Part shown: piece after piece, positions 3,543 to 39,200 of the stretch
Numbering within the stretch: position 1 is the first letter of the stretch
Layout: each line of letters starts with the position of its first letter
Made by a program: the position numbers and the translations under genes
Assembly (NCBI GenBank): GCA_003507445.1
Contig: DNVR01000008.1
Location: forward strand, 29,083-93,082
Source of the DNA: Candidatus Moraniibacteriota bacterium
GTDB lineage: Bacteria > Patescibacteriota > Minisyncoccia > Moranbacterales > GWC2-37-73
Length of the DNA: 64,000 bases
Direction of reading: 5' to 3'
Notes under the pieces: model-generated
Databases searched by the model: none
The model's input: the letters and a program-made list of their open reading frames with translations, nothing else
What the model was told of the DNA's origin: nothing

Positions 3543-3622
3543 GACCGTGAAGTGGCCGGCCTCGTCCTTCCGGCCAAAATGGGGAAAGATAATCGTCAAC
3601 CGGACATCATGTCCATAACCTG

Positions 3623-3948: not shown

Positions 3949-4052
3949 GAAAAAAACTAAAAATTTCCTCTCTATTTTGAAAAGAATTTTTTGGCAATTT
4001 TGTTCGGTCGAACTAATTTTAAACAATTCAAAAAATTAATTTTAAAAACAAA

Positions 4053-4898
4053 ATGATGAGAAATAAAAAAGAAAATATTACCATAATTATAATTATCGTA
4101 ATTTTAACCTTATCCGCAGGAGTTATCGGCTGGATGCTAGCGAAGAACTCGCAAGATGTTTCAAAATCTAAGATAGTTAATAATTCAAAACTAATAAGCA
4201 CAACAGAACAGTCTTCGGAGCCGACAAATAAAATTTCTGAATCGTTACCTCCTGTTGATGAAATCGCTATTAACGATTTTTCCATAGCTATTGTCGCAAA
4301 CAATGATCTGCACTGGTCTAGTCGCGCAAATGTCAAATCAGATACTTCAATTCAATTTCGCTGGACAACAACAGGTGCGGATAGTTGCAATATAAGTGGC
4401 GGAAATTTATTTAATTCGAATACAAATTTAGCAACAAACGAAACAGGAATTAAAAAAGTTGCAGATGATTTTTCGAACGGAATCTACACATTAAAATGTG
4501 TAAGAAAATTAGATAATAAAACAGCAGAGGCAACTCCTATAATACTCAATGTCACACCAGCTAAAAAGTTAGTCATGTGCATGAAAAAATGCGGAAATGG
4601 CGGAATACCCATTCAGCAGAATATGAATCGCTTCTCTGGTGAAACAGTCCAAAAAGTCCGAGCGTGTTTTGGAAATTTTGCGTTGGATTGTCCAACACAG
4701 GATGTTACCAAAAATGCCGAATGGCTAACTAGTAATAATTCGATAATTACTTGGTCAAAGGATTATACGGTCGATGGAGAGAAGATAGTGGATGATGTGT
4801 ATCCCAATAAAACCCTGAAATCAGTCGGTGCAGGCAATGCTGAAGCCAGTGTTACATATTCTGGTTATTCATATGTTGTGAGGGTTGATGTGAAGTAG
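4053..4898 (+). CDS. hypothetical secreted/membrane-anchored Cys-containing protein
   Basis: 281-aa ORF with N-terminal signal-anchor ITIIIIIVILTLSAGVIGWML. No recognised catalytic motif. Confidence 0.5.
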   Translation: MMRNKKENITIIIIIVILTLSAGVIGWMLAKNSQDVSKSKIVNNSKLISTTEQSSEPTNKISESLPPVDEIAINDFSIAIVANNDLHWSSRANVKSDTSIQFRWTTTGADSCNISGGNLFNSNTNLATNETGIKKVADDFSNGIYTLKCVRKLDNKTAEATPIILNVTPAKKLVMCMKKCGNGGIPIQQNMNRFSGETVQKVRACFGNFALDCPTQDVTKNAEWLTSNNSIITWSKDYTVDGEKIVDDVYPNKTLKSVGAGNAEASVTYSGYSYVVRVDVK

Positions 4899-5083
4899 AC
4901 ATATTAAAAATAATTACTAAAAACTCTTTATTTTTAGGAAAGAAAAACTTTAGTTTCATTGCTTGAACCCGGCATATGTGGCTCGAAAAATTGACACTAT
5001 TAAAAAGTTCCAAATCAAGCATCATATTTGACGAAAATGAGTTAATTGGATATAATTGGATGTAGTTAATATATCCAAAAACT

Positions 5084-6172
5084 ATGGCTAATATAAAGCA
5101 AAAAGATATTAATATTGCAGACAAATTTTCAAAAAGGCTTGATAATATACCTGCGGAAATAATTTCAAAAATCGCCAAGATTGATGAATTAAAAGGCAGC
5201 TGGGTTTCTGGCACTCAACTAAGCTCGCAAGCACTGGGTCGTCTCAAGCGGTCTGTTTTGATAACCTCGACTGGAGCATCAACTCGTATTGAGGGTGTGC
5301 AACTTTCTGATGAGGATATTGAAAAAGTGATGCGCGGTATAAATATTCAAAAATTTGCTGACCGCGATAAGCAAGAAGTCAAGGGTTATTACGAACTTTT
5401 GGAAAATGTCTTTAATTCTTGGGGGAGTTTGAAATTCAACGAAAGTTCAATAAAACATTTCCACAAGGAGTTATTGAAATATTCAGAAAAAGACCAGGGT
5501 CATTTGGGTGATTACAAATTTGGAGAAAATAAAGTCGTCGCATACGATCATGAAGGAAAAGAGGTTGGGATAATTTTCAATCCCACTTCGCCATACCTCA
5601 CGCCCAAAGAAATGATTGAGCTTATTGAATCAACCAATTTTTTGCTTGCTGAAAAAAAATACCATCCGTTGCTAGTAATTGCAAATTTCCTGGTTGAATT
5701 TTTGGCAATTCATCCTTTTAAAGATGGAAATGGAAGAGTTTCTAGAGTTTTGACGAATTTATTGTTGCTTCAAAATGGATATCTGTATATGCCGTATGTT
5801 TCACATGAAAAACTAGTGGAAGACAATAAAACAGATTATTATCTTGCACTTAGGAGAAGTCAAAAGACTTTTCATTCAAAAAACGAAGACATTTCTCCAT
5901 GGTTAGAATTTTTCTTTACAATTTTATTACGACAATCACAATTTGCGATTGAATTATTGTCAAAAGAGAATATTGAAAAATTACTATCAGAAAGACAACT
6001 TGCAGTTTGGAAATTTTTTCAACAAGTTGAAATTACTGGAACAGGCGAGATTGTTGCTGGAACAAATATTCCGCGGCCAACCGTCAAGCAATCACTTGAG
6101 GTATTGTTGAAGTTGAAAAAAATAGAGAGAATAGGCCAAGGTAGAAGTGTGAGATATAAAAAGGTTGCTTAA
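5084..6172 (+). CDS. fic: Fic/DOC family protein (putative AMPylator) with N-terminal inhibitory helix and C-terminal winged-helix-like region
   Basis: Canonical Fic motif HPFKDGNGRVSRVL (HxFx(D/E)GNGRxxR). Upstream STRIEG matches the (S/T)xxxE(G/N) inhibitory motif of class II Fic proteins. Confidence 0.85.
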   Translation: MANIKQKDINIADKFSKRLDNIPAEIISKIAKIDELKGSWVSGTQLSSQALGRLKRSVLITSTGASTRIEGVQLSDEDIEKVMRGINIQKFADRDKQEVKGYYELLENVFNSWGSLKFNESSIKHFHKELLKYSEKDQGHLGDYKFGENKVVAYDHEGKEVGIIFNPTSPYLTPKEMIELIESTNFLLAEKKYHPLLVIANFLVEFLAIHPFKDGNGRVSRVLTNLLLLQNGYLYMPYVSHEKLVEDNKTDYYLALRRSQKTFHSKNEDISPWLEFFFTILLRQSQFAIELLSKENIEKLLSERQLAVWKFFQQVEITGTGEIVAGTNIPRPTVKQSLEVLLKLKKIERIGQGRSVRYKKVA

Positions 6173-6416
6173 GATTGAATAATAGAAAGAAAATTAAGAA
6201 GTTAGGTTCGCCAAAATACGTAAAAGTTTATATTTCTAAAAAGCGGAATCAAGGGATTTCGCTTTTTGTTATGGATTTTTTGGTGTATAATGAATGTATA
6301 AAATGATCAATGAGCAGTTTTCAATTTTCATATAAATTAATAATTTTCAATTTGAAAATTAAAAATATTGAAAATTAAATGAAAATTGTGAATTGTAAAT
6401 TGAAAATTGTTAATCT

Positions 6417-7337
6417 ATGTCTTGGATTTTTGTTGCAGTAAGCGCATATTTTTTGGGAGCCTTTGCGGTCCTGATGGACAAGTTTCTTTTGGGCTCCAAA
6501 AGAATTTCTTCTCCGCAAGTGTACACTTTTTACGTGGGAATTTTTGGATTGGGCGCATTTCTTTTTGCGCCGTTTGGTTTTGATGTTCCTTCTGCTTGGC
6601 AGATCACAATAAGTTTTATTTCGGGAGCAATTTATATTGGCGGAATTTTTGCGCTCAATCTTTCAATCAACAAAGCTGAAGCAAGCAGGGTAACACCTGT
6701 TGTTTTTTCGGTTGTGCCGATTGCGACATATTTGATATCCTTTGTTTTTAATGATGAAAAACTGACACTCATTCAGATTGGTGGAGTCGCATTGCTTATA
6801 ATCGGTGGACTGCTCATTTCTTTTGACTTGCCGCTTAAATTGAACAAGAGAAAATTTTTTGTTGGCTTTTATTTTTCTTGTTTGGCTGGAGTGCTTTTGG
6901 CAATTTCATATGTGATGTTTAAGATGGTTTATGTTGAGCAAACATTTTTAAATGGATTTATGTGGACCAGAGTTGGCGGTTTTGCGGCTGCACTTTTGCT
7001 TTTGATTGTTCCGACTTGGCGCAAGGCTATTTTTAAAAGTTTTTCTCATGCTAAAAAACCTTCAAAGGAACATATTGGCACGGGAGGAATATTCATTGCA
7101 AATAAGATCCTGGGCGGAACAAGTTCTATCTTGCTCAATAAGGCTTTTCAGTTGGGAAGTGTGACATTGGTCAATTCGATGGTATCGCTCCAATATGTGT
7201 TTGTGCTTATTCTCGTGGCAATAGCAGCCAAAAAACATCCGAAAGTTTTTGAAGAAAAGTTGTTGTTTTGGGATTGGGCTCAAAAAGTTGTTGCGATATT
7301 AATCATTGCAATAGGGATGGTTTTAATTTCAAGATAG
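6417..7337 (+). CDS. polytopic membrane protein, EamA/DMT-superfamily-like transporter
   Basis: 306 aa with ~10 hydrophobic helices in two halves. No ATP-binding motif. Confidence 0.45.
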   Translation: MSWIFVAVSAYFLGAFAVLMDKFLLGSKRISSPQVYTFYVGIFGLGAFLFAPFGFDVPSAWQITISFISGAIYIGGIFALNLSINKAEASRVTPVVFSVVPIATYLISFVFNDEKLTLIQIGGVALLIIGGLLISFDLPLKLNKRKFFVGFYFSCLAGVLLAISYVMFKMVYVEQTFLNGFMWTRVGGFAAALLLLIVPTWRKAIFKSFSHAKKPSKEHIGTGGIFIANKILGGTSSILLNKAFQLGSVTLVNSMVSLQYVFVLILVAIAAKKHPKVFEEKLLFWDWAQKVVAILIIAIGMVLISR

Positions 7338-14040: not shown

Positions 14041-14452
14041 TGTATATATGGTGGAGTTGATGGGAATTGCACCCATGTCCAAAATTGACAATCCAAAATC
14101 CTCTACAAGTTTAGTTTATTTTTTCTCACCGAAGCGAGTGCGACTAATTAGAGTAGAGAATAAACAAAACCTCTAAATGCCGTTTTCAGAATTATTTCGC
14201 ATTTTGTGTCCAAAAAACCACAAAACACTATTCTCATGTTTGACACCGAGGTCTGCTTACGAGAAATCAGCAGTTCGATGGCTTCGAGCCTAAGCTAAAG
14301 CAGGTGAAAAACCAGCAAATGCTTGCGCAAATGTAGCTTTCGCCTTTGATATGAAGTTTGCACTTATATCTTCGCCACACTTTTTACGATACAGCAGCGG
14401 TGATCGACTTGCATATTTTGAAAAGTACAACCTGTCGAAACTAAACAACCCC
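14041..14452 (-). ncRNA. ssrA: tmRNA (ssrA)
   Basis: Minus-strand 5' GGGGTTGTTTAGTTTCGACAGG matches the tmRNA 5' consensus. 3' end reads ...GGACATGGGTGCAATTCCCATCAACTCCACCA with encoded CCA. Acceptor pairs 7/7 including the G3-U wobble. Adjacent to smpB. Confidence 0.75.
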
Positions 14453-21447: not shown

Positions 21448-23124
21448 TTGCCAAAAAATTGGAAAACAATTGGTAAAATGCTGACATTTAAGGAAAAGGT
21501 TGTGGTCACATCTTTGCTTTTGGTTATCGCGGTTTCTTTTGTGGTGTGGGCTGGCTCTTTTTATTTTAATCTTACCAAAGCCATTCCAAAGGCAGGTGGG
21601 GAATATATTGAGGGAATCGTTGGTCAACCTTTGTATATTAATCCTCTTCTTTCTCAAACAAGCGAGGCTGATTTAGATTTGGTGCAATTGATTTTCAGTG
21701 GACTTTTCAAATATGACAAAGATGGAAAAGTCGTTGCTGATTTGGCTGAAGGTTATGATGTTTCTGATGATCAGCGAGAGTATACTGTCTATTTGAAAAA
21801 AAATGTTCTTTGGCAAGATGGCCAACCGCTTAATGCGAATGATGCATTCTTCACTTTCAATGTTTTGCAGGATTCTTCATATAAAAGTCCGCTTCGTCAA
21901 AGTATGCAAGGTGTTGAAGTGAACTTGGTTGATGATTATACTGTAAAATTTGTGCTTAAAAATCCTTACATTGGGTTTTTGGAAAATCTTACAGTAGGAC
22001 TTTTGCCAAAACACATTTGGGAAAACATTGCTCCGGAGAAATTTGCATTGGCTGATAATAATCTGCATCCTGTTGGATCAGGACCATATTCTTTCGGCAG
22101 TTTTCAGAAAGATTCAAGTGGAAACATTTTGACTTTGCAACTTGTTTCTAATAAATCTTATTACAACAACGTTCCATATATTTCGAAAGTTACTTTCAAT
22201 TTTTATCCCGATGACGAGCAGCTTGTTGCAGCGTATAACAAGAAAGAAATTATGGGGATGGGGAGTCTGCCACCAGATAATATTAAAGATCTCAAAAATG
22301 CTAAAAGCACAAATATTCACGAGTTGGTAATGCCTAGTTATTTTGCGGTGTTTTTTAATCAAACAAAAAGTGTTGCGCTGGCTGATGATGAGGTGCGAAA
22401 AGCTCTGAGCTTGAGTGTTGATAGACAGGAGATTATTGATAAGATTTTGTATGGCAAGGGTCGTGCGATCAGTTCTCCGTTTTTACCTCAAATGCAGGGA
22501 TATAAAAATGATGATAATGTTAAGATTGATTTGGAGGCTGCCAAGAAAGTGTTGGACGAAGCCGGTTGGGTTTTGGATGAAAATGAAAACGTGCGTAAAA
22601 AAAATTCACAGACTTTGTCTTTTGAATTGGTAACAGCTGATTATCCCGAATTGAATCAGACAGCAGAAATATTGAAACAACAATGGGCAAAAATAGGCGT
22701 GAATGTTGATGTTAAGGTTCTGACAATTTCTGATTTGTTGCAAAACTATATCCGCACAAGGGAATATGACAGTATGCTGAATGGTCAAACAATCAGGTTT
22801 AGACCCGAGCTGTATGATTTCTGGCATTCTTCGCAAAAAAGTGATCCAGGACTAAATCTTTCTTTGTTTGACAATAAAGATGCTGATGGATTGTTGGATG
22901 ATTTGCGACAACAAACAGATCAGGATAAGCGCGTTGAAGGTTATCAGAAATTTCAAGATATTTTAACCAAGGAAACTCCTGCTGTTTTTCTGTATTCAAG
23001 ATATTATCTTTATCCTGCCAATACTAATGTGCAAGGAATGGCTGTGGAGAATATCAATAATCCCGCACAACGATTTGTTGATGTAAATGATTGGTATGTC
23101 AAAACAAAGAGAATTCTTAAATAA
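21448..23124 (+). CDS. ABC transporter substrate-binding protein, family 5 (oligopeptide/nickel type), orphan
   Basis: 558 aa with N-terminal signal anchor. YTVYLKKNVLWQDGQPLNANDAFFTF typical of the SBP_bac_5 family. No permease/ATPase genes adjacent. Confidence 0.7.
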   Translation: MPKNWKTIGKMLTFKEKVVVTSLLLVIAVSFVVWAGSFYFNLTKAIPKAGGEYIEGIVGQPLYINPLLSQTSEADLDLVQLIFSGLFKYDKDGKVVADLAEGYDVSDDQREYTVYLKKNVLWQDGQPLNANDAFFTFNVLQDSSYKSPLRQSMQGVEVNLVDDYTVKFVLKNPYIGFLENLTVGLLPKHIWENIAPEKFALADNNLHPVGSGPYSFGSFQKDSSGNILTLQLVSNKSYYNNVPYISKVTFNFYPDDEQLVAAYNKKEIMGMGSLPPDNIKDLKNAKSTNIHELVMPSYFAVFFNQTKSVALADDEVRKALSLSVDRQEIIDKILYGKGRAISSPFLPQMQGYKNDDNVKIDLEAAKKVLDEAGWVLDENENVRKKNSQTLSFELVTADYPELNQTAEILKQQWAKIGVNVDVKVLTISDLLQNYIRTREYDSMLNGQTIRFRPELYDFWHSSQKSDPGLNLSLFDNKDADGLLDDLRQQTDQDKRVEGYQKFQDILTKETPAVFLYSRYYLYPANTNVQGMAVENINNPAQRFVDVNDWYVKTKRILK

Positions 23125-23215
23125 AACAAATACTCACGAATGTAAAACAAATAGTCACTGATCACGAATTTTCGTGCTTCGTGAAAATTCGTTAGATATT
23201 CGTGAAAATTAGTGT

Positions 23216-23821
23216 ATGATGGATTTTACAAATGTTCCAAAGCATTATGCGGCGCGAACGCAAGAAAAAATGCAAGATGTTTTAATGGATCCAAATGGGG
23301 TTGGGCCAGTAATTCATTACTATATGATTCGCGGCGGGGTGGATCAAAAAAATACAACAGTTTGGGAACCAGGGACAATTTCTGGGGAATATATAAAAAC
23401 ATATGGGCATTATCACGTTGGAAAATTAAGCGAGGATTATTTTATTGCCTATGGCGAAGGTGTGGTATTGCTTCAAAAATTGGTTGAAAATGAAAATGGC
23501 GAAATGATTGCTGATCAAGTTGAAGATTTTAAAGCTGTCATCGTGAAAACAGGTGATAAGGTTTTTATGCCTGAAAAATATGGACATCTTTTGGTTAATA
23601 CTGGAAAAACATATCTTGTTACTATTGATGATAGTCCTGTTGATTTTGAAGATCGTGATCCTTCCAGCTTTCCTGGGCATGCTGATTATGAACCTGTGAA
23701 AAAGATGAGAGGATTTGCTTATTATGTTGTTGAAAAAAATGGCAAGCCAGCACTCAAAAAAAATCCTTTGTATAAAAATATTGAAAAAGAGGATTTGGGC
23801 GGTCTTCAAGTGATTAACTAA
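23216..23821 (+). CDS. cupin-type glucose-6-phosphate isomerase (archaeal cPGI-like)
   Basis: TYGHYH (TxGHxH) and PEKYGHLLVN (PPx3Hx3N-like) motifs characteristic of cupin PGI. Confidence 0.55.
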   Translation: MMDFTNVPKHYAARTQEKMQDVLMDPNGVGPVIHYYMIRGGVDQKNTTVWEPGTISGEYIKTYGHYHVGKLSEDYFIAYGEGVVLLQKLVENENGEMIADQVEDFKAVIVKTGDKVFMPEKYGHLLVNTGKTYLVTIDDSPVDFEDRDPSSFPGHADYEPVKKMRGFAYYVVEKNGKPALKKNPLYKNIEKEDLGGLQVIN

Positions 23822-23837
23822 TATTAATATTAAAATT

Positions 23838-24317
23838 ATGCCAATCAAGAAAAAAAAGAAAATTGTCGTTGCCGTTAGTGGCGGTTTTGATCCGATTCAT
23901 GTCGGACACGTTAGATTGTTTAATGAGGCCAAGGCGTTGGGAGATGAGTTGGTGGTGATATTAAACAACGACAATTGGTTTGATATCAAGGGGAGAGCTC
24001 TTTTTATGCCAGGAAAAGAACGCAAAGAAGTGATTGAAGCGCTCAGGTCTGTGGATCGCGTTATTTTGAGCAAGCATAAAGCTTCCAAGATAAAATACGA
24101 TAGGAGCAGTGTTGAATATAGCGTGTGTCGCGAGTTGGAAGAATTAAAACCAGATATTTTTGCTAATGGTGGTGATCGTTTTAGCGATGATGTGCCAGAG
24201 GTTGGAGTTTGCAAAAAAATCGGCTGTAAAACAGTTTTTAATATAGGGAAAGGCGGTAAGGCCCAATCCAGCTCTTGGCTCTTGGAAAAATATTTAAAGA
24301 AAGTATGTAAAAAATAA
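23838..24317 (+). CDS. cytidylyltransferase-like nucleotidyltransferase (HxGH family)
   Basis: VAVSGGFDPIHVGHVRLF contains the (T/H)xGH motif of class I-like nucleotidylyltransferases. 159 aa. Confidence 0.6.
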   Translation: MPIKKKKKIVVAVSGGFDPIHVGHVRLFNEAKALGDELVVILNNDNWFDIKGRALFMPGKERKEVIEALRSVDRVILSKHKASKIKYDRSSVEYSVCRELEELKPDIFANGGDRFSDDVPEVGVCKKIGCKTVFNIGKGGKAQSSSWLLEKYLKKVCKK

Positions 24318-24318
24318 T

Positions 24319-25341
24319 ATGAAACAAAATTTAAATCCGATAGACAAGTCTAATATGAGACAGGTCATTCTTGATGGGCCTAGTCAATTTGAACTCGGTC
24401 TTTCTTTGGCGAGTGATATTAAGGTTGAAGGTAAATTTAGCTCCGTTATGATTTCGGGAATGGGCGGATCATCTCTGCCAGCCAATGTTCTCAGAACTTA
24501 TGTCAATGATTTGGCTAAAGGAAAGACGGAACATGCCAAGTATTTTAGTATATATCAAAATAGATTTTATACGCTTCCGCCAGAATCTTATTCGAACTGT
24601 TTGAATATAATTTCTTCCTATTCTGGAAATACCGAAGAAACAATAGCTTCGCTTGAGGAAGCACTTTTAAATGATTTACCTTGCGTTGCCATCTCAAGTG
24701 GCGGAAAAATAGAAAAAATATGCAAGAAAAAAAATGTTCCTTTTGTTAAGATTCCAGCTGGCATTGAGCCGAGAATGGCTACAGGATATTTTTTTGGAGC
24801 TATGTTCAAGATATTGGCAAATGTGGGTTTGGTAAATGATATGACGGAGAATATAGTGTCTATGTCTAATGCGCTTGCCAAAAATAGCTTCAATTTGGAG
24901 AAAAAAGCCATGGGCATTGCCGAAAAAATCAAGGGTAATATTCCCGTGGTTTATGCCAATACCAAATACAAATCTTTGGCTATGATATGGAAAATAAAGC
25001 TTAATGAGAATGGTAAAGTGCCAGCTTTCTGGAATTATTTTCCCGAGTTTAATCATAATGAAATGAATGGTTTTGCAAATACAAAGGGTGGATTTTTTGC
25101 TATTATGCTTAGGGATAAAGATGATCATCTTCAGAATTTAAAAAGGTACAATGCTGCTCAAAAAATACTTGAGACAAAAGGAATAAGCTCGGAGATAATT
25201 GATTTGGAAGGCTTTTCTGTTATTGAAAAAATATTCACCAGTTTGCATTTGGGAGATTGGGTTTCCTATTATTTGGCGCTGGCTAATAATCAGGATCCTA
25301 CACCAGTAGATATGGTTGAGGAATTTAAAAAATTGCTCTAG
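24319..25341 (+). CDS. SIS-domain bifunctional phosphoglucose/phosphomannose isomerase (archaeal type)
   Basis: ISGMGGSSLPANVL SIS P-loop-like motif. 340 aa, with size and layout of the PGI/PMI family. Confidence 0.5.
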   Translation: MKQNLNPIDKSNMRQVILDGPSQFELGLSLASDIKVEGKFSSVMISGMGGSSLPANVLRTYVNDLAKGKTEHAKYFSIYQNRFYTLPPESYSNCLNIISSYSGNTEETIASLEEALLNDLPCVAISSGGKIEKICKKKNVPFVKIPAGIEPRMATGYFFGAMFKILANVGLVNDMTENIVSMSNALAKNSFNLEKKAMGIAEKIKGNIPVVYANTKYKSLAMIWKIKLNENGKVPAFWNYFPEFNHNEMNGFANTKGGFFAIMLRDKDDHLQNLKRYNAAQKILETKGISSEIIDLEGFSVIEKIFTSLHLGDWVSYYLALANNQDPTPVDMVEEFKKLL

Positions 25342-25502
25342 CTTGCATTTCTTGTATCAACTTTTAAACTTAGGAAGACAAATTTGGAGATAATTGAAGT
25401 ACAGACTGGTAGTTACTTAGGCGAAGACGATATTGTACGCTACGAAGATAAATATGGTCGTAAAACGGGTGTGGCAGCCTAGCGTATATTTATAGTGCGG
25501 GG

Positions 25503-25531
25503 TTGACAAAAATACTTGTTGGGTGTATAAT
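25503..25531 (+). promoter_or_regulatory. consensus sigma70-type promoter (TTGACA-17-TATAAT)
   Basis: TTGACA at 25503..25508, 17-nt spacer, TATAAT at 25526..25531. No ORF for ~550 bp downstream until rnj. Confidence 0.6.
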
Positions 25532-25724
25532 TAATCTAATAAGTAATACTTCTTGAATTTTACCTTGTTTAAAGCTTTTTTTCTTCGAAACAAACAAACA
25601 AGTGCTCAAATTGACAAAAAGTCTCTTTATTAAGGGGTTTTTACTATTGTATTTAAAAATCAAATCTTTATATAAGTAAGTTATCGTTTCTTTAAATTTG
25701 GAACTTTTGCAATTGCTCGAATAT

Positions 25725-25805
25725 TTTCTTTTTGGCACGCTTTTGGATAAATACTCATTATCCAAAAGCTCAAAGAGTCGCTGTCGCCGACTATTGGCCA
25801 AAAAT
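25725..25805 (+). repeat. ~80-bp intergenic repeat (family 3), copy 2
   Basis: ~93% identical to 12061..12141, same orientation. Confidence 0.8.
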
Positions 25806-26081
25806 AAAATATTCTCACATTGCGAAAGTGAATGTTTAAACTCTGAATTTGTAATAATTGTGTAACGTGCTTTTGTAAGTTCACCCAGTCAAATTGCTTA
25901 CGCACCGCCTTTGGCGGATTTGACGGGGTAAACCCTGTTAAATAATTTTAATTTTTTTAAGAAAATTAAAATTAAGATTTGAGTCCTAAATTGAATTTAC
26001 GGGGTGTACTAAATTAAAAAATTAATATAATAAGTTTGTTTCTCTTATTTGTAGAGACTCAAATCTTATTTAATAGGGTAA

Positions 26082-27970: not shown

Positions 27971-28090
27971 TTTTTTTGTTTTGCCTGCTTCCTTTCTCGG
28001 CACGCTTCGCAATCGAAGAACTATGATTGCTCGCTAAGAGTTCGCTGTCGCTCTCTGCTACCCTCAAAAGAAAACAGGCAAAACAAAAAA
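27971..28090. repeat. long hairpin element related to repeat family 3
   Basis: Outer 15-bp IR TTTTGTTTTGCCTG/CAGGCAAAACAAAA enclosing GGCACGCTT + palindrome CTTCGCAATCGAAG + AGAGTTCGCTGTCGC. Shares the GGCACGCTT and GCTGTCGC blocks with family 3. Confidence 0.55.
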
Positions 28091-28288
28091 CAAATCTTTA
28101 TTTTTTTGAACCACAATCTTGGTATAACCAGATTTTTTTGAATAGATAAAAACATCTTGATTGATATAGGAAACACTGATAATATCTATCTTTTTGGGGT
28201 TGGCAAGATATTTGAAAATATGCTATAATTTGATAAGTTAACAGATGATGTTTTTAGTGAAAAAAATTATTCAGTCATTGCTTTTATT

Positions 28289-28882
28289 ATGCAAGAAAAG
28301 AAAAAAATAAAAATGTTATCTTCGTGGTTTGTTGACCACTTTCATTTGATTTTTAAGTCTGCGGCAGACAATCATTTGCGTATTCAAAATGCGCTTAAAA
28401 ATCCGGACGGAACTTTTCAATTGACGCTGCGATTTAAATCGTATAGTGAACTAAAAAAATATCAAAAGAAAATAAGAACCATTTCTGTCAGTCTTTCTTC
28501 TGCTGTTGCGATGGTGGCAGTGGCGTTTATTGTTGCGCCGTATATTATGAACCCTAGTCGTTCGAGCGCTGCTAGTTTTCAATGGACACAAAATAGTTGG
28601 GCGGCAGGCGCAGGTGCAGAATCAGCAACAAAAACTGGTTGGACAAAATATGCTTCAAAAGATGAAAATATCACAGCAGCGGAAGCGGGTATTTCCCTCA
28701 CACTCCCAACTCCTCAAAGTGTCGCGGAGAATGCAGATGCTGATTTTACTGGCGCGCAGACAGGCGATGGGTTCTATACTAATGGATCTGGACAGCTGCT
28801 ACTCAAAAAACCAACGGGCGCAACTTGCGGCGTTGGCGGAGAATGCGCAAGCGGGACCTGCACTTCGACGCTGTGTACGTGA
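28289..28882 (+). CDS. small secreted Cys-rich protein, paralog of the N-terminal part of 41687..42835
   Basis: Shared blocks HLRI, YQKKIR, TM helix, WTQNSWAAGAGAE, KTGWTKYASKDENI. C-terminal Cys cluster CGVGGECASGTCTSTLC. Confidence 0.6.
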   Translation: MQEKKKIKMLSSWFVDHFHLIFKSAADNHLRIQNALKNPDGTFQLTLRFKSYSELKKYQKKIRTISVSLSSAVAMVAVAFIVAPYIMNPSRSSAASFQWTQNSWAAGAGAESATKTGWTKYASKDENITAAEAGISLTLPTPQSVAENADADFTGAQTGDGFYTNGSGQLLLKKPTGATCGVGGECASGTCTSTLCT

Positions 28883-29031
28883 GAACTGCAACCCCAGTTA
28901 AATACTGCGGAGTACCGCAATTTAACGGGGTAAACATACAACATACAACAAAATACAGAATACAAAACATATAACATATAGCATGTAACAAATAGATACT
29001 AAATACTAAATACTAAATACTAAAAAAACTT

Positions 29032-29736
29032 ATGGATATGATAAAAAGGGAACAAAAGAAAACAGAGGGAGTTAATTTGGAAAAACAAACAGTAAGCTCA
29101 AAAAGAAAGTATGTGAAAATGATTGTGTTGGCTTTGGTTGTTGCGGCCATTGTCGCAGCCGGTTTTTTTGCTTGGCCCAAGATTGCAGAAAAATTAAACC
29201 AACCAAAACCTGCAGCAACAAATGCGATTGATCAGTATAAACAAGATTTGAAAGACTTGAAAAAACAAGCAGCAACTTCTGGCAGCAAAGAAGATTTGCA
29301 AGCGCTTGGCATTGCTCAATATGCAACAGGCGATCAGGCAGGAGCAATTGAGACGTATAAAAAACAAATTGAAAAAGAGCCAAACAGCATTGTTGCTCAC
29401 AGTGGTCTTGCTAATGCACTTCGCGATCAGAAAAATTTTGACGGAGCAATCGAGGAGTACAAAAAAGTTATTGAAATTTCCCCAATCGACATTTCTGCCT
29501 ATGTGAACTTGGCTAGTGTTTATCAGTATCAGCTTAAGCAAATGGACAAGGCTATCGAGGCTTATAAACAAGGAATTGAAAAAAATCCAAAATCAGATGA
29601 TTTGTATGTGCTTTTGGGATTGGCTTATGAACAAAACGGGGACAATGAAAGTGCAAAGACATCTTATGAAAAAGCTTTAGAATTGGATGAAAACAACGCA
29701 GCTGCCAAGCCAGCCTTGGAAAGACTTAATCAATAG
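29032..29736 (+). CDS. TPR-repeat protein with N-terminal membrane anchor
   Basis: TM helix MIVLALVVAAIVAAGFFAW followed by ~34-aa repeats (AxxxYxxAL...P). Confidence 0.7.
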   Translation: MDMIKREQKKTEGVNLEKQTVSSKRKYVKMIVLALVVAAIVAAGFFAWPKIAEKLNQPKPAATNAIDQYKQDLKDLKKQAATSGSKEDLQALGIAQYATGDQAGAIETYKKQIEKEPNSIVAHSGLANALRDQKNFDGAIEEYKKVIEISPIDISAYVNLASVYQYQLKQMDKAIEAYKQGIEKNPKSDDLYVLLGLAYEQNGDNESAKTSYEKALELDENNAAAKPALERLNQ

Positions 29737-29785
29737 GGGTTAATAATTTCTAATTTCCAATTTCTAATTTCCAACAAAAAATCAA

Positions 29786-30166
29786 ATGTCAAATGATAAA
29801 AGGATATATGATTTGGAGGAACGTACGGAAGTATTTGGTGAGAATATTATTGAATTTTGCAAAATAATTCCAAAAACAGCATTAACAACCGTATTGACGA
29901 ATCAACTTTTGCGATCAGGGACTAGCGTGGGAGCAAATTATTGCGAAGCGGATTGTGCTGAATCAAGAAAAGATTTTGAACATAAATTGGGAATTTGTAA
30001 AAAGGAAGCCAAGGAAACAAAACATTGGCTTAGGATGATTGCAAAAGCTGCACCTGAAATTAAAAGTGAAGCGCAAATATTATGGAAAGAATCAAATGAG
30101 CTGCAGTTAATATTTATTGCGATTATTAATAAGTCAAAAATAAATGAAGCAGAGAAGAAAAGATAA
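29786..30166 (+). CDS. four-helix-bundle protein (23S rRNA intervening-sequence protein family)
   Basis: LRSGTSVGANYCEA ... KDFEHKLGICKKEAKETKHWL matches the conserved core of the family. Confidence 0.65.
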   Translation: MSNDKRIYDLEERTEVFGENIIEFCKIIPKTALTTVLTNQLLRSGTSVGANYCEADCAESRKDFEHKLGICKKEAKETKHWLRMIAKAAPEIKSEAQILWKESNELQLIFIAIINKSKINEAEKKR

Positions 30167-30241
30167 GTTTGGAAATTATATATTGAAAATTTTGTTAGAA
30201 ATTGGATATTAGAAATTAGTAATTAAACGAAGTATTCTCTG

Positions 30242-33200
30242 ATGGGTGTAATCGGAATAAGGAAAAATATAAAAAGCAAAAATTGGGGACTGAAAATTAT
30301 TTCAGCGTTTTTTGCTTTGAGTTTCTTTTTTGTGGCTGTCGCTTCAGCTGAAGTCGCTCCAACAATCTCTGAAATTTCTCCAAATAATGGGTTGCCAGAG
30401 GGTGGAACAAGTGTGACGATAACTGGAACAAATTTTTCTCAAAGTACAATAGATGCAAACACGAAATTGTTGATTCAAGGTAACGGCACAGGTGCAAGCT
30501 TCGTTGATTCTGAAATAACCCCAAAGACAGTTACCGCTGTTGGAAATGTCACCCAATCTTCTGCGCAGTCAAAATTTGGAGGATCAAGTGTTTATCTTGA
30601 TGGAAATGGCGATTATTTGTCTTTAGCGGACAGCGAGGATTGGGCTTTTGGCACAGGAGATTTCACAATGGATATGTGGGTTAAAACAACCGAATCTGAT
30701 GGTTTCTTGCTTTCTCAGATGCCTTCAAATGGTGCAGCGGGAGTTGCTAGTTTTTATTCAGTTGTGAGTGTGGATGGAAAAGTTATTTTTGTTCCTGATT
30801 ATGTTTCCTACCCAAGTCATCACACTATAACATCAACAGTTTCTGTTAATGATGATGCTTGGCATCACATCGCATTTGTTAGGAACGGCGCATATATAAG
30901 AATGTATATTGATGGAACAGAAAGTGGCACAGCTTTAAATATGGGCGCTGGTTTTACTATGACAAATTCTGCTGAACTTTTGAAAATAGGTAGCATTGGG
31001 CTTCCAGAAAATTACAGTCCTTATGGTGGGTATATTGATGAAATCCGTGTTTCCAAGGGGATTGCTCGCTGGACCAGCAATTTTACACCTCCATCTTCTG
31101 AAAATCATTTGCAATCAACATTAACAATCGGTGGAACTTCTGCCACAAATATTGCAGTTACAAGCCCAACTACAATTACCGCCACAACTCCTGCTCACGC
31201 TGCGGGTGCAGCTGATGTAGTGGTTACAAATTACGACGGTCAATCTGCAACACTGACAAGCGGATATACTTTCAATGCTGCTCCAACCATTTCTGCAGGA
31301 GCTGTTACTCCAGCGAGTGCAAAACTTACGGGTGGCGACACAATTACAATTACAGGATCTGGTTTTTATGGAACTCCAAGTGTAACTCTTGGTGGAACAG
31401 CTGCGACTGCTGTTACAGTAGTAAATCCAACCACAATCACCGCGACAACCCCAGCACATTCTGTTGGTGCTGTTGATGTTGTGATTACAAATGAAGATTC
31501 GCAAAGCGCGACACTTGCAAACGGATTTACATTCACGGAACTTCCACCGACAGTTTCAGGAATTTCTCCAAGTGCTGGTTCACCTGCTGGCGGAACAAGT
31601 GTGACGATAAGTGGAACTAATTTTTTGGTTGGAGATGTTGATACATACACTAAAGTGTTGCTGCATGGTGATGGCACGGGAGCAAGCTTTGTTGATTCTG
31701 AATTAATCCCAAAAGTAGTTACAGCAGTTGGCAATGCTACTCAATCTGCTGCGCAATCTAAATTTGGAGGGAAAAGTATGTATTTTGATGGGAGTGGTGA
31801 TTATCTTGATTTGGCAACCTCTGCTGATTTTGGTCTCGGCACAGGTGATTTTACTGTGGATTGTTGGGTAAATTTCTCCACTGTAACTAATGCAATATTT
31901 GTGAATACCACTAGTTCAGCAAATGGATTCTTTTTTCAATACTATAATAATGCTTTTACTTTTGGTCAAAATAATGTAGGTTTTGTAATTAATACACCTT
32001 GGACGCCTTCTATAAACACTTGGTATCACATAGCAGTGACAAGGGCGAGTGGCACAACCAAAGGCTTTATTAATGGAACGCAAATAGCATCTGTTAGTGA
32101 TAATTATAATTACGCTAACAATATATTGCGCGTAGGTGAAAGCGTTAATGGTTATCTAGATGAAGTCCGTGTTTCAAAAGGGATTGCTCGTTGGACTAGT
32201 AATTTTACACCGCCGTCTGCTGAATATCACTCACAACCAATGTTAACTTTTGGCGGAATCTATGCTACAAATGTCGCAGTCACAAACCCAACTACAATTA
32301 CCGCTACAACTCCTGCTCACACTGCAGGTGCAACTGATGTTGTCGTCACAAATTACGATGGACAAAGTGCAACACTAACAAGTGGTTACACTTTCAATCC
32401 TGCGCCAACAATTTCTGCTGGAGCAGTTTCTCCAGCCAGTGCCTTGAAGACAGGAGGCGACACAATTACAATCACGGGAACAGGATTTTATGGCACACCT
32501 ACCGTAACTTTGGGAGGAACAGCTGCGACTGCTGTTACAGTAGTAAATCCAACCACAATCACCGCGACAACCCCAGCACATTCTGTTGGTGCTGTTGATG
32601 TTGTGATTACAAATGAAGATTCGCAAAGCGCGACACTTGCAAACGGATTTACATTTACAGAACTTCCATCAACAGTTGGATCAATTTCTCCAAATAATGG
32701 AACTGTTGCAGGTGGAACCAATGTGACGATTACGGGGACGAATTTTATTGAAAACAGCGCAACAGGTGGAACGATTACAACCTCTGGAGAATATACAGTG
32801 CATACATTTACAGGAAGTGGAACGTTTGTGCCGAATAATGAGATGGATGTTGAGGTTTTGGTTGTTGCTGGCGGAGGTGGAGGTGGAGGTGGAGAACCTA
32901 GTGCTGGCGATTCTGGTGGTGGTGGAGGAGCTGGAGGATACAGAACTGCAAATCTTACAATATCATCAGAATCTCATAATGTGACTGTGGGTGCTGGAGG
33001 CGCAGGTGCAGCAGGAACATCTTTACCAGGAAATAAAGGGAATGATTCAATTTTTGATTCCATAACTGCAGCAGGTGGAGGTGCTGGTGGAATAGAGGGC
33101 GGAAGTGGTGGAGCTGGAGGATCTGGAGGTGGAGCTGGAGGTCTCTGTTCAGTTCCAGTTTCAGGAGGAGCAGGTAATACGCCAGCAACGACACCAAGTC

Positions 33201-36200
33201 AAGGAAATAATGGAGGATTTACACCCGGGACAACTTGTTCTGGGCGAGCTGGTTCTGGCGGTGGTGGTGCTGGCGGTGTTGGAGGTGCAGGAACCACTGT
33301 TAGTGGCGCTGGTGGTGCGGGCGTAGCAAGTGATATTACCGGAACTTCTATAACAAGAGCTGTTGGTGGTGCTGGCGGACAAAGCGGCAGTGGAACAGGT
33401 ACAGCAGGAGCTGCAAACACTGGAAATGGTGGAAAAGGAGGAGGAATAAGTTCTGCTGGTGGTGCAGGAGGAAGCGGTGTTGTTATTGTTAGATATTTGA
33501 CCCATAAACCAGTAGTTACCATCGGTGGAACTTCTGCTACAAATGTCGCAGTCACAAGCCCAACCACCATCACTGCCACAACTCCCGCACATACCGCAGG
33601 CACAGCTGATGTGGTGGTTACGAATTATGACGGACAATCTGCAACGCTGACAAATGGATACACTTTCAATCCTGCGCCAACAATTTCTGCAGGAGCAGTT
33701 TCTCCAGCCAGTGCAAAACTTACTGGAGGCGATACAATCACAATCACTGGAACGGGATTTTATGGCACACCTACCGTAACTCTTGGAGGCACAGCTGCGA
33801 CTGCTGTTACAGTAGTAAATCCAACAACAATCACTGCGACAACTCCCGCACATTCTGTTGGCGCTGTTGATGTTGTTATTACAAATGAAGATTCTCAATC
33901 CGCAACTCTTACCAATGGATTCACTTTCACAGAACTTCCACCAACACTAAGTTCAATTTCTCCTGATAACGGTCCAGTAGCAGGGGGAACTAATGTGACG
34001 ATAAGTGGTACGAATTTTGTCGCTGGGTCTGTAAGTGCAATTGGCGGAACAATAACAACTGATGGTGATTATACGGTACACACATTTACAGGTAGTGGAA
34101 CATTTACAGCTGATAGTGATATGCCTGTGGAGGTTCTGGTTGTTGCTGGTGGTGGAGGTGGCGCAGGAATGGCTGAATCTGGTGGAGGTGGAGGAGGTGG
34201 AGTGCAACATCATACTTCATGGCCAATAAATGCTGGTGCAAATTATAGTGTTGTAGTTGGAAATGGTGGTTTAGGTGCTACAAGTGTTTCAAATGGTGCA
34301 AATGGTGCAAATTCATCTTTTGGCGAATTGATTGCTAATGGAGGTGGTGGAGGAGGTGGATTTATCGGTTTAACTCCAGGATCTGGAGGTTCAGGCGGTG
34401 GATCTACGCGAGGAGTTGCTGCAGGATTGAGTAATCAAATTTCAATTAATGGTTCAAATTCTTACGGAAATCCTGGAGGTGTTGGATGGCCAAGTGGATA
34501 TACGGCTGGAGGTGGTGGAGGTGCTGGTTCTGCGGGAGGAAATGCTACTAGTGGAGTGTATCCAGATGGAGGTGTTGGAGGTGCTGGAAGAGCATTTGAT
34601 ATTTCAGGAACATCAACATATTATGCTGGAGGTGGTGGAGGAATTTATGCTTATGGTGGTATTGGTGGTGGAGGCAATGGTAATATGGGAACAGTTGAAT
34701 CTTATAATGGTGTGGCTAATACTGGAGGTGGAGGAGGTGGAGGAGCTAATGTAGTTGGAGGAGATGGTGGTTCTGGAATTGTAATAGTGAGATATTTGAC
34801 AAAGGCTAAATTGCCAACCGTAATAATCGATGGAATTGCAGCTACAAATGTTTCACTTGTGAACCCAACCACAATAACAGCAACCACTCCTGCTCACACT
34901 GCAGGTGCAACTGATGTTGTCGTCACAAATTACGATGGACAAAGTGCAACACTAACAAGTGCGTTTGAATATCACAATTGGATTACGGCAGGAACGTATA
35001 CCTCAACAGTTAAACCTCTGGCTAATGTTGGATTTGGAAACATTGATTGGGTTGCTGGCACGCCTGCTAATACTAATTTGACAATGCGAGTAAAATCTTG
35101 CACCTCTGCTGATTGCAGCGACAAACCAAGTTGGTCTGGATGCGACTTGGCTGCGCTGGACAATGGTACCGATATTTCCGGTAAGGGTTGTGTGGTGGAT
35201 GGCCAAGGTTATGTTCAATATCAAGCATATCTTTCAACTGATTCAAATTCTGCTCAGCCATATCTCGACAGCGTCACAATTTCAACTCAACCAGAATATT
35301 CCAAAACATTTTTAAGTCTCATTTCTTCTCCTTTTGATACGGGAAATGAAAGCAACAGTGTTCAAAAAATTTCTTGGACTGCAACAAATGACAACTTGGC
35401 AACTCAGGGACAAGTGGCAATACAAATTCGAACTGCACCGGATAATGGCGGAATTCCTGATTTTACAAATTCAGTTTGGTGTGGGCCGACTGATTGCAGC
35501 GGCACAACAAATTCAACAACAGCTTTTGCAATCAGTTATTACACTGACAAAACAGGGGCTCTTGCGATAAATGCAATTAACAAGGATCTTAGTGATGATC
35601 GTTGGATTCAATATGCAACATTCTTGAAATCAGCTGATGGAACTTTGACTCCGACATTGACTGATGTGACGATGCAATATGCATATAACACTCCACCAGC
35701 AATTACAATTGACAGCAACCCAATATTTTTAAAGCAAAATGCAGATGGAACTTTCTCTGTTCCATACACCTTAAGTGAAACTTATGATGATTTTGGTAAC
35801 ATTCCTCACGGAACAGCTGGTTCTCCGATTAAAGCACTTCTTTTTTATCAACCGAAAAATGACATCACAATTGAAGAACTTACAAATGTTCGAACAGGAA
35901 TTGTCACCCTCAATAATCCAAGCAATCTTCCAATTCCATCGCAAGGTTCAATGCTGATTGGCGATGAGTTGATGACTTTTGATTCAGTTGGAGCAACTGG
36001 AAATCAAAGAAACATCACAGCGCGTGGAATTGCTTTTGCAACTTCATATCCAACCACGGCTGCTGCACACTTGGCAAATTCCGCAGTATTTTTTGCAACT
36101 TCAGCTTCGATTCAAACAATCGATACGCTTGTTGAGACGGGCATAGTTGGCGCTGAGGCATCCGTATCAAATATGTTCTCTTGGAATCCAAGAACTGATG

Positions 36201-39200
36201 TCAATACAAATTTGAATGGTAACAAACTTTCAGACGTGGTTTTCAAAGTTGCTGCCAACGACGCTGATTCAACCAACATTAATAATATCGGACAAAGCAG
36301 TGCGACCACTTCGCAAGTTCTGGATTTGGAATCTCCTTTGATTAAAAATGTCACTTCATCTTCGGCTGATGGGAAATATAACGCTGGAAAAAATGTGGAC
36401 GTCACGATTAATTTTGCTGACAGTCTTGGCAACGCAAAGAATGTGACTTCAACAGGCGCTGTCACGATAGTTTTGGAAACTGGCGTTAATGATTATGAAT
36501 GCTTGATCCCATCTATCACAAACGCATCAAGCGCATCTTGCACATATCAAGTCCAAACAGGCGATGTTAGCGAAGATCTAACTGCAATTTCTGTAAGCGG
36601 AACAATTAAAGATCAATTCCAAAACACTCTTTCAAACTTTGCGATTCCAGCAGGACAAAACATTGCTGATTCAAAAGCTATTGTTATCGATACAATTTCT
36701 CCAATCATTTCAGGTGTGTCGCCAGCAGCAAGTGCGTTTGTAAATTCAATCACTAGCGCTAATGGTGGCTCTGATATTTCGTATGAAGCGACAGAACTTT
36801 TAAAAACAGGATCATATGTTAAATTCACTTCAACTTCGGGAACAGATTTGAACACCGAATATCTTTGCACTTTGCAGGGAACAGCACTTGAGGTTGGCGT
36901 GCACAGTGGTTTTGAAATCAAACAAGATGCAAACAACTGCACTGAAGTTCAAAGCGCGCTTCAAAGTGGTTCTGTTTATACAATGACAATTCACGCCATT
37001 GACGAAGCTGACAATGCCAGTGACCAAACAATTGCAAATATTAATTTTGACACAACCAATCCGACAGCTAGCGTAACTTCCCCATCAAACGATGCCTTTT
37101 TCAACAGCATTACAACTGGCTCAGATGTTTCATATAATCTTGATGAACAGTTGCAAGCAGGCAGTTATCTTAAATTCACTAGAACTGCTGGTAGCGCTGA
37201 TGGATCTTCTCCGCGAACTTGTAATTTGACAGGGACTGAGCTTGAAGAAGGTGATCATAATAATGTGGACTTGAACGCTGTCTGTGGAGGATTTGCTTTA
37301 GTAGATGGTGCAGTTTATTCAATTGATCTTTTCGCTAAGGACTTGGCTGGAAATGAGGCAAATGCAACACAAAAAACAAATGTTACTTTTGACCAAACTG
37401 CTCCAACACTCAACTCATTTACTTCAGACAAGGCCAACAACACGCCAGCTACAGCTTATGGCGCAGGGGAAGTGATTGATATTAAGGCGGTTTACAGCGA
37501 ATCATTGGCAGTTGGCTCAACAATGACAGTTAGATTGGAAAACACAGCAACGCCCGCTGTTGATGTTGTGCTCGATCAAATTGCTGGAAATGTGCTTTCG
37601 GGAACATTTGTTGTGGACGGTCCGCGTAAGGGATATGACACGGCTGATTTGACTTTGCGATCAATTGTTTCTCAAAATGCTATCGATCAAGCTGGCAATG
37701 TTAAAACTGATTCGGCGATACCGTTTGGACAAAACTTAGGAGACAACAAAGACATTGCGATTGATACAGGAACTCCAATTCTGGAAAGTTTTGCTGCTCA
37801 AAAACTTCCTGAGAATTCAACAAGCGGTTCTTACAAAGCAGGAACGGAAATAAAAATAACCGCGACATATTCCAAACCAATTGCCTCTGGCGAAATCACG
37901 CTGCATCTTAATACTCAAAATGGAGCTGAAGACATTGAAAACATTGTATTGTCAACAATTTCAGGTTCTACAATTTTCGGCACACACACTGTGCAAAATC
38001 TGGACAACGCTGAAGACTTGAAAGTTTTTGCCATCACTGCTCAAAGCGTTACTGACTTTAAAGGTAATGTGCTTGATAGAACAGGAACAATGACTGAATA
38101 TGACGCATATTTCACTTCGCTTGTTGGCGAAAACATTTCTGCTGTTACAAATATTTCCAATTTCAAAATTGACACAACTGCGCCAACACTTGGAGCAACG
38201 CCAATTGCCATTGCAAATGTCGCAGGAAAAACTAGCAGTGCAACCCCAGTGATAACATTGTCTGCAACTGATAATGATATTTCTAAAGCAATCTTCTCAT
38301 TGGATGGGGGAACTTCTTGGTGTGCTCCAATTGATTATGGTGCAACAATAAACACATTTGACATTACATCTAGTGCTTGCGGTGGTTCTGCTTCCAACGA
38401 AGTAAAAACTGTCACAGTCAAGTTCAGCGATGTTGCTGGCAATGAGAGTGCAACTTCCAGCGCTTCAGTTGAATATGATAATTTGAAACCACAGTTGCAA
38501 ACAATTACTGCTGATGTGGTCGGCGGAATCTATGGACCAAATTCAGTTATTAAAATCACTGCAACATATGACGAAGACATTGCCAGTGGAACATTAGTTG
38601 TCAATCTTAACAATGGAAAGCAGCTTACGATTAATACTGTCGAAACGGCCAGAACACTGGTGGCAAATTATACTGTTGGCGCAACTATTAGTGGCGAAGA
38701 CACAAGCGCGCTTCGTGTAGCTGCAATTGTTTCGCAAGCTGTTTCTGATTCAGCTGCCAACACGCAAGACGGAACCAGTCTGGCTGGAATAACTGCCAAC
38801 ATCGACACTGATAAAACAATTATAATTGATACTACTGCGCCAAGCGCTGCTGCGCCAGACGGCTCGATTGTTGCTGACAGGGCAAGCGAAGAAAACAAAA
38901 TAAAAATTACAATTTCTCCTGATGATTGGGGTGTGGCAAAGGATGAAATGACCGCTCAAATTGCGCTGATGGACACGGTGGTTGCTTGCAACTTTACTGG
39001 CGCAAATGCAGCAGTCTTCAACAGTGAATTTCCAAAAACATTTACATATGATGACCTTGCAGGCGCAGTGAAAAAAGTTTGTGTTAAATTGACTGACAAG
39101 GCGGGGAACATTTCTTCTGATTTCAGTGTGGTCACTCCAAACACTCCTGAAAATTTCGTGTATACTGATCTTACCAGCGCGACGTTTACAGGTGCGATTT

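Follow-up and report, generated by a model that had tools for sequence, protein, structure and literature searches.

Why would a bacterium keep two types of phosphoglucose isomerase (PGI) side by side, with a nucleotidyltransferase gene between them? The question is posed by contig DNVR01000008.1 of a Candidatus Moraniibacteriota bacterium, of which a stretch of 64,000 nt was analysed (hereafter the window). Three genes on its + strand follow one another with intergenic gaps of 16 nt and 1 nt: a cupin-type PGI (cPGI; 23216–23821, 201 aa), an HxGH-class nucleotidyltransferase (NT; 23838–24317, 159 aa) and an SIS-type bifunctional PGI/phosphomannose isomerase (PMI) (SIS; 24319–25341, 340 aa). 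We consider it rather probable that this cluster is a mannose-activation module in which NT and SIS recently took the place of ManC, with NT as an analogue of the nucleotidyltransferase domain of that enzyme.

All three proteins matched records at 100% identity in a metagenome-assembled genome of Candidatus Moranbacteria (candidate phyla radiation, CPR/Patescibacteria), and the spacing of the genes suggests that they are co-transcribed as an operon; a promoter scan performed no better than chance in the cluster region. The cluster was compared with 80 species-level genome loci carrying NT and with 80 metagenome loci carrying cPGI. Below, L-numbers denote homologous genome or metagenome loci, and P-numbers homologous proteins.

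The slot downstream of cPGI

The nearest backbone to the window was that of L097, in which SecG, the solute-binding protein SBP5, cPGI and RNase J were 99%, 95%, 92% and 99% identical in amino-acid sequence, respectively, and in which a ManC gene lies between cPGI and RNase J. The DNA of the window and L097 was collinear at 89–94% nucleotide identity (89% in the SBP5–cPGI stretch) up to position 23825, four bases past the cPGI stop codon, and again from 25381. L097 3197–4953 (ManC) corresponds to window 23826–25380 (NT and SIS), with breakpoints at 23825/23826 and 25380/25381. The segment between the breakpoints was closest to the NT–SIS pair of L090 (74% nucleotide identity over window 23820–25343, with NT 87% identical at the amino-acid level), and the DNA comparison with L097 and L090 points to 23826–25380 (+ strand) as an imported cassette that stands in place of ManC, a mannose-1-phosphate guanylyltransferase (GMP)/PMI enzyme.

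At the downstream breakpoint, tblastn and translation revealed the C-terminal relic of a type II PMI cupin (25375–25482, + strand), which reads KTNLEIIEVQTGSYLGEDDIVRYEDKYGRKTGVAA*, that is, 35 codons and a stop. The relic has no start codon, is in frame with the SIS stop and is preceded by unrelated sequence; it does not qualify as a complete PMI cupin (PF01050, ~115 aa with a start codon), of which it retains the last 35 codons only. In tblastn it was 79% identical to the C-terminus of P0131 and 86% identical to the PMI cupin of L088; 31 of 35 residues were shared with the fusions of L084/L098 and 29 of 35 with the ManC of L097, and the homology ran on into the orthologous downstream intergenic DNA of L084 and L097. 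Because the relic contains no frameshift and differs from L084 by 11 synonymous-only and 4 non-synonymous codon differences, the truncation of the PMI cupin appears to be recent. A search for such a relic in L004, L090–L094, L120, L126–L128, L131 and L132 found none, and therefore, as far as these other NT-only, NT–SIS and cPGI-only loci go, the window is the one place where the scar has so far been seen. From the SIS TAG stop onward (region 25339–25482), 11 unrelated codons (LAFLVSTFKLR) precede the 35 relic codons in the same frame; the shared frame is possibly a coincidence (1 in 3), and read-through could append a cupin tail to SIS.

These features are best explained by a recent swap in which an NT–SIS cassette from another Moranbacteria lineage replaced the ManC gene (GMP domain plus PMI cupin) between cPGI and RNase J and spared only the final 35 codons of its PMI cupin. 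The exchange would have been two-for-two, with the HxGH NT for the GMP domain and the SIS PGI/PMI for the PMI cupin, and two PGI types would now stand side by side for that reason. In five other loci (L090–L094) the NT–SIS pair is flanked by SBP5 and RNase J and cPGI is absent, which would be expected of an SIS enzyme that serves the PGI as well as the PMI step.

Among the metagenome loci, 24/80 had a canonical ManC, with NTP_transferase and PMI cupin domains, as the gene 3' of cPGI and 11/80 an HxGH NT, and none of the 80 carried both there. A PMI cupin accompanied NT in 8 of the 11 cPGI–NT loci (fused in seven, a separate open reading frame in L140); the order cPGI–NT::PMI was found in the Moranbacteria loci L001, L084, L095 and others. 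In L088 and L133 a PMI cupin follows cPGI, and ManC-like and PGM_PMM genes lie close by; eight metagenome loci of a more distant clade contain PGM_PMM–PMI cupin–cPGI operons, which tie cPGI itself to mannose-phosphate metabolism. The ManC proteins of L086 and L097 passed the GMP_PMI equivalog TIGR01479 (422 and 441 bits; cutoff 373). Whether fused to NT or to the N-terminal domain of ManC, the PMI cupins were 78–83% identical and interleaved on clustering; BLASTP of NT against the N-terminal domain of ManC gave E values of 1.1 or worse, i.e. no detectable similarity. Homology of NT to the NTP_transferase domain (PF00483) was not detected; the proposed relation to ManC is one of functional analogy and not of membership. 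On this reading, the slot 3' of cPGI would always encode PMI and a sugar-1-phosphate nucleotidyltransferase, in several non-homologous forms.

Families and partners of the three proteins

cPGI matched the Pfam family PF06560 (69.5 bits; cutoff 20.7) and contains the motifs TYGHYH (residues 62–67) and PEKYGHLLVN (residues 119–128); its nearest solved relatives by sequence were the T. litoralis and P. furiosus cupin PGIs (E 3e-8). The metal (Mn) ligands of the P. furiosus enzyme (PfPGI), His88, His90, Glu97 and His136 (PMC6627849), align to H65, H67, E73 and H124 of cPGI, so all four are kept, and H65, H67 and H124 are ≥90% conserved across the CPR family alignment. The proton-transfer residue His158 of PfPGI aligns to H155. 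An AlphaFold model of cPGI (pLDDT 89.4) matched the P. furiosus and T. litoralis PGI structures over its full length in Foldseek (E 1e-12 to 1e-14, TM 0.65–0.71); the top 12 matches comprised 11 chains of these PGIs and the engineered protein 3sxw, and the next cupins followed at E ~4e-6 and TM ~0.35. The modelled fold is thus closer to cPGI structures than to other cupins, and cPGI is predicted to interconvert glucose-6-phosphate and fructose-6-phosphate. Clustering at 50% identity yields 447 clusters for the PF06560-type family, a small number; within Moranbacteria, identity to cPGI is high, at 77–100% among the best 120 clusters listed.

SIS exceeded the cutoff of the NCBIfam equivalog for bifunctional PGI/PMI, TIGR02128 (227.1 bits; cutoff 213.9), scored 151 bits against PF10432 and contains the motif SYSGNTEET. 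Its residues R152, E230 and H246, invariant in 17 homologues, align to R135, E203 and H219 of the P. aerophilum PGI/PMI (1tzb), which Swan and colleagues are said to have described in 2004 as the catalytic residues Arg135, Glu203 and His219. The HMMER alignments to 1tzb end at residue 252, short of the C-terminal Thr291 region that is held to permit mannose-6-phosphate binding; the SIS family shows a largely invariant DPTPV...K motif, which did not map onto 1tzb, and a search of a C-terminal fragment against solved structures for PMI determinants returned nothing relevant. By its family, SIS is predicted to act as a PMI (fructose-6-phosphate to and from mannose-6-phosphate) and also as a PGI.

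NT matched PF01467 (53.9 bits; cutoff 21) and TIGR00125 (52.2 bits; cutoff 27.7), and its HxGH motif is H21-V-G-H24, within GGFDPIHVGH at residues 15–24. The family is tightly conserved, and its invariant residues fall within GGFDPxHxGH, NNDNW, FANGGDR, PEV and GGKxxSSS, together with two invariant cysteines. The best solved relative by sequence was 3glv, an archaeal protein that we take to be RibL-like, then TagD, with ECT and HldC also found; the NT model (pLDDT 86.9) matched TagD, 3glv and HldC in Foldseek at TM 0.6–0.68. The family is present in at least 585 species-representative genomes and, judged from the 80 genomes listed, appears to be mostly parcubacterial/patescibacterial; its members currently carry only the label 'adenylyltransferase/cytidyltransferase family protein' or, wrongly, that of a heptose enzyme.

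With profile matches of this strength, the three genes are not chance open reading frames. An earlier description of this DNA from its letters (the sequence-only reading) had proposed three co-directional, tightly spaced genes for a cupin PGI of archaeal type with TYGHYH/PEKYGHLLVN motifs, a 159-aa HxGH nucleotidyltransferase and a two-SIS-domain PGI/PMI-like protein. The reading frames lie exactly where it had placed them, and the profile searches led to the families it had named, PF06560, PF01467 and PF10432, the last with TIGR02128. The assignments that would have spoken against it, to another cupin family such as a plain PMI or to NMNAT/CoaD, did not emerge: cPGI structures rank above other cupins, and NT scored weakly (16–32 bits) against NMNAT and CoaD models. 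All three of its family assignments hold, but its term 'archaeal-type' marks nothing special here, since cupin PGIs, SIS PGI/PMIs and classical PGIs have all previously been reported in CPR bacteria, about 2% of whose genomes hold more than one PGI type (Jaffe et al. 2020, PMC7304191).

NT homologues are fused to a C-terminal type II PMI cupin (PF01050) in P0131, P0133, P0220, P0224 and L083, and NT plus PMI cupin was confirmed as one open reading frame in 8 loci; in L013, L033, L046 and L059 the fusion is instead to a HAD domain of the eukaryotic phosphomannomutase (PMM) type (PF03332), which among solved proteins is closest to the L. lactis alpha-phosphoglucomutase (E 3e-32) and eukaryotic PMMs. 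Among the species-level genome loci, a PMI cupin adjoins NT in 5/80, and GH130 mannoside phosphorylase genes (PF04041, 139 bits) lie near it in 8/80; GH130 beta-mannoside phosphorylases make or consume mannose-1-phosphate. Genes typical of polysaccharide clusters (MurJ/Wzx-like flippase, GalE-like SDR, Bac_transf, GT2, NTP_transferase) were each near NT in 12–19/80 loci, the flippase-like, epimerase and Bac_transf genes in 17–19/80. A RibL-like FAD synthetase or a TagD-like CDP-glycerol enzyme was rejected as the principal reading of NT, as neither explains the PMI/PMM fusions or the displacement of ManC.

Two kinds of locus stood out in this survey. Compact clusters that combine NT and a stand-alone PMI cupin with 2–3 GH130 genes occur in L013, L024, L033 (~2600–7200) and L017 (6001–9856), all of them in other Parcubacteria; in L013 and L033, NT is fused to the PMM-like HAD domain. 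The arrangement suggests a beta-mannoside/mannose-1-phosphate cycle linked to the NT family. L040 encodes a 343-aa protein (5977–7008) in which NT is joined to a C-terminal region with a weak DisA-type diadenylate cyclase match (PF02457, 26.2 bits; cutoff 27), and such a partner is inconsistent with the mannose model.

Predicted route and competing explanations

The fusions to PMI and PMM-type domains, the GH130 and polysaccharide neighbours, the position of NT in the ManC slot of the nearest relative and the lack of any locus with both together make NT most likely a mannose-1-phosphate nucleotidylyltransferase, a non-homologous analogue of ManC. In the route that we favour, cPGI would convert glucose-6-phosphate to fructose-6-phosphate, a step for which the SIS enzyme would be redundant, and SIS would convert fructose-6-phosphate to mannose-6-phosphate. 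Mannose-1-phosphate would then be formed by an unlinked enzyme of the alpha-D-phosphohexomutase family (phosphomannomutase/phosphoglucomutase, PGM/PMM; 48424–49761, − strand), and NT would join it to an NTP, yielding NDP-mannose for glycan synthesis. The mutase contains all four PGM_PMM Pfam domains, scored 422 bits against the PMM/PGM model NF007088 (below its cutoff of 618) and is 57% identical to the PGM_PMM adjoining the cPGI locus in L088; it is a candidate for the interconversion of mannose-6-phosphate and mannose-1-phosphate.

The sequence-only reading had preferred a sugar-nucleotide branch to plain glycolysis, with NDP-mannose or a heptose as examples. The PMI/PMM fusions and the ManC slot uphold such a branch in its NDP-mannose form, but disfavour the heptose. 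It had also taken the two PGI types as a sign of the pathway; both are indeed present, but their pairing looks rather like transitional redundancy after the swap, given the five other NT–SIS loci that have no cPGI.

As far as we know, ATP and CTP are the nucleotides used by the HxGH-class enzymes characterised to date, and NT may accordingly make ADP- or CDP-mannose instead of GDP-mannose; neither of the former is, to our knowledge, known as a natural donor. A wider claim, which we regard as doubtful, is that NT founds a Parcubacteria-wide class using ATP or CTP, and that many CPR surface glycans, or a mannogen-like beta-mannan store, would be made from ADP- or CDP-mannose. Such a beta-mannan store would be handled by the neighbouring GH130 enzymes.

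Several points weigh against the mannose-activation model. About 50 of the 80 genome loci have none of the searched-for sugar-related genes beside NT, and in the Moranbacteria loci L004, L127, L131 and L132 the cPGI–NT pair stands without a nearby PMI. The best NCBIfam match of NT is rfaE_dom_II (TIGR02199), a heptose-1-phosphate adenylyltransferase model, with 69.8 bits where the cutoff is 181.5, and among solved proteins the fused HAD domain comes closest to an alpha-phosphoglucomutase, which leaves room for glucose-1-phosphate as substrate. Sequence and fold searches do not separate TagD, 3glv and HldC, and because these score alike, the fold comparison is uninformative on substrate. We know of no GTP-using enzyme in the HxGH class, which casts some doubt on GDP-mannose as the product. 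In cPGI, the proton-transfer residue Tyr152 of PfPGI is not conserved (it aligns to S140), and Trp or another residue occupies this position in most CPR homologues. The censuses were built on our own tblastn queries and crude calls of open reading frames, the metagenome contigs are possibly repeat samples of one population (L084, L085 and L098 are apparently identical in sequence), and the co-occurrence of NT and ManC was scored at the level of the locus.

An absence of any pathway link, with the isomerases as redundant glycolytic PGIs and NT as a housekeeping TagD-like or RibL-like enzyme that happens to lie between them, would suit the best solved matches of NT (TagD and 3glv, again taken as RibL-like), the many NT loci without sugar genes nearby, and the compactness of CPR genomes, which makes adjacency alone weak evidence. 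We nevertheless hold it to be improbable: NT has been fused recurrently and independently to PMI and PMM-like domains, it alternates with ManC in one slot, the cassette was exchanged in a nearly isogenic background, and the NT–SIS pair is kept in five other loci. The presence of NT inside polysaccharide clusters (17–19/80 loci) argues in the same direction, though it would also be compatible with CDP-glycerol.

If NT belonged to an NDP-heptose branch, its chemistry would parallel the mannose route, and the rfaE_dom_II match, which aligned over the full length of NT, the label heptose kinase/adenylyltransferase that JGI gives to NT homologues, and the B. pseudomallei HldC among its structural neighbours would all be accounted for. 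The score, however, falls far under the equivalog cutoff, and the HENase motif (F/L)xxGRSTT (PMC11573728) is missing from NT, which reads FNIGKGGKAQSSS there; this motif marks HENases with broad NTP use and not all HENases (PMC11573728). GmhA, heptose kinase and GmhB were not among the families identified in ~170 loci, in which these three were not searched for specifically. The slot of the nearest relative holds a bona fide GMP_PMI equivalog, and the fusion partners of NT are PF01050 PMI and PF03332 PMM-like domains. We therefore think it quite improbable that NT serves a heptose pathway.

We also see only a slim chance that NT activates another hexose-1-phosphate, for example glucose-1-phosphate to ADP- or CDP-glucose, with the isomerases merely feeding hexose-phosphate pools. 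The affinity of the fused HAD mutase domain to the L. lactis alpha-phosphoglucomutase (E 3e-32) fits such an activity, and the PGM/PMM of the window could serve either sugar, but the recurrent fusion and neighbour partner is PMI, with its mannose-specific chemistry, the GH130 neighbours are established to make or consume mannose-1-phosphate, and the displaced gene is a mannose-1-phosphate guanylyltransferase/PMI equivalog. A catabolic role, in which mannose-1-phosphate from mannose or mannan would enter glycolysis (PMM to PMI to PGI) with NT as a regulatory or salvage enzyme, is barely credible here: it draws on the GH130 pairs beside PMI and NT::PMM in L013, L024 and L033 and on the PGM_PMM–PMI–cPGI operons without NT, and it is plausible for the GH130 loci but not for the window, as no GH130 occurs in the window or in other Moranbacteria loci, and NT alternates with the anabolic GMP domain of ManC and is frequent inside polysaccharide biosynthesis clusters.

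With the mannose-activation model preferred, what is new is the displacement by a cassette and the role predicted for the HxGH family, not the presence of cupin and SIS PGIs in a CPR genome. A literature search on HxGH mannose-1-phosphate nucleotidylyltransferases, ADP-/CDP-mannose synthesis and CPR mannose metabolism returned nothing relevant. Under the model, an uncharacterised family present in at least 585 species-level Patescibacteria genomes acquires a specific function that can be tested. If true, it also describes a clean non-orthologous displacement of both ManC domains that took place in nearly isogenic surroundings and left a molecular scar. It would account for the small fraction of CPR genomes with two PGI types and would affect CPR metabolic reconstructions, in which the lack of ManC would not mean the lack of activated mannose and the cupin 'PGI' would be no less a part of a glycan-precursor module than of glycolysis.

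Surrounding DNA and known counterparts

Profile searches identified the genes flanking the cluster as M16 peptidase, SecG, the SBP_bac_5 solute-binding protein and RNase J. Just 5' of the cPGI start, 23122–23213 contains two pairs of direct repeats with 21-nt spacing, TAAAACAAATA(C/G)TCAC twice and TTCGTGAAAATT twice, and a palindrome, CACGAATTTTCGTG, lies at ~23163–23176; these repeats and the palindrome could act as an operator. The count of the 12-mer TTCGTGAAAATT in the window was not above chance. Between the PMI relic and RNase J lies a 600-nt AT-rich (GC 0.29) non-coding stretch (25483–26081), with a perfect sigma-70 consensus (TTGACA-17-TATAAT) at 25503–25531, a terminator-like hairpin at 25918–25943 and several inverted repeats. 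Parts of it resemble intergenic regions in relatives (L084 2005–2178; L001 7244–7384), and a small RNA or a long leader of RNase J may be encoded there; an Rfam search of the 740 nt after the SIS gene returned sub-threshold noise only.

In L001, RNase J is directly followed by tRNA-synt_1b, an unknown gene, PGM_PMM (−) and RecG (−). The tRNA-synt_1b/PGM_PMM/RecG block of the window lies at 47349–52038 and is preceded, relative to L001, by ~19 kb of extra DNA (~28000–47300), which may be an inserted segment. Its GC content reaches 0.47 at 32–34 kb, and its genes include those for a 1406-aa fn3/purple-acid-phosphatase-N protein (42888–47108), a TPR protein (29032–29736) and what we take by eye to be a four-helix-bundle protein (29786–30166). 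Housekeeping RNA genes of the window are a tmRNA (14049–14452, −) and tRNA-Arg(GCG), tRNA-Ser(TGA) and tRNA-Ser(GCT) within 52779–54134.

Comparison with known systems places each protein of the cluster beside a characterised counterpart. The bifunctional PGI/PMIs of the archaea Aeropyrum pernix, Thermoplasma acidophilum and Pyrobaculum aerophilum resemble SIS, which passes their equivalog cutoff (TIGR02128), in being built of two SIS-like halves and in the SYSGNTEET motif; their catalytic Arg/Glu/His also align with it. The window protein is instead bacterial (CPR) and the cassette partner of a nucleotidyltransferase, and the C-terminal residues proposed to permit PMI activity did not align between it and the solved structure. 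The archaeal cupin PGIs of P. furiosus and T. litoralis have the fold, the four metal ligands and His158 in common with cPGI, which is only ~23% identical to the solved structures, has an N-terminus ~24 residues shorter (from the alignment offset) and two insertions (~96–107 and 145–153, with model pLDDT <50 at 147–152), and carries Ser140 in place of Tyr152; cPGI of the window type is set in what we predict to be mannose-activation rather than glycolytic operons.

HldC and RfaE domain II belong to the same HxGH superfamily as NT and represent its best curated match, with similar length and full-length alignment, and the substrate of HldC is a manno-configured sugar-1-phosphate, as predicted for NT. 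NT scores far under the cutoff of that model; HldC differs in its STT-type motif, where NT has SSS after an insertion, and in its partners, which are GmhA, HldA and GmhB, whereas those of NT are PMI and PMM. In the type II GMP/PMI enzymes ManC, AlgA and XanB (TIGR01479), the PMI and sugar-1-phosphate nucleotidylyltransferase steps are fused or adjacent, as they would be in the window; ManC occupies in the nearest relative, L097, the identical slot to NT and SIS, and its C-terminal PF01050 cupin is also retained in the NT::PMI fusions (78–83% identical). Its nucleotidyltransferase domain is of PF00483, whereas NT is a Rossmann-type HxGH protein (PF01467) without detectable similarity to it, and the place of its PMI cupin is taken in the window by the SIS-type PGI/PMI.

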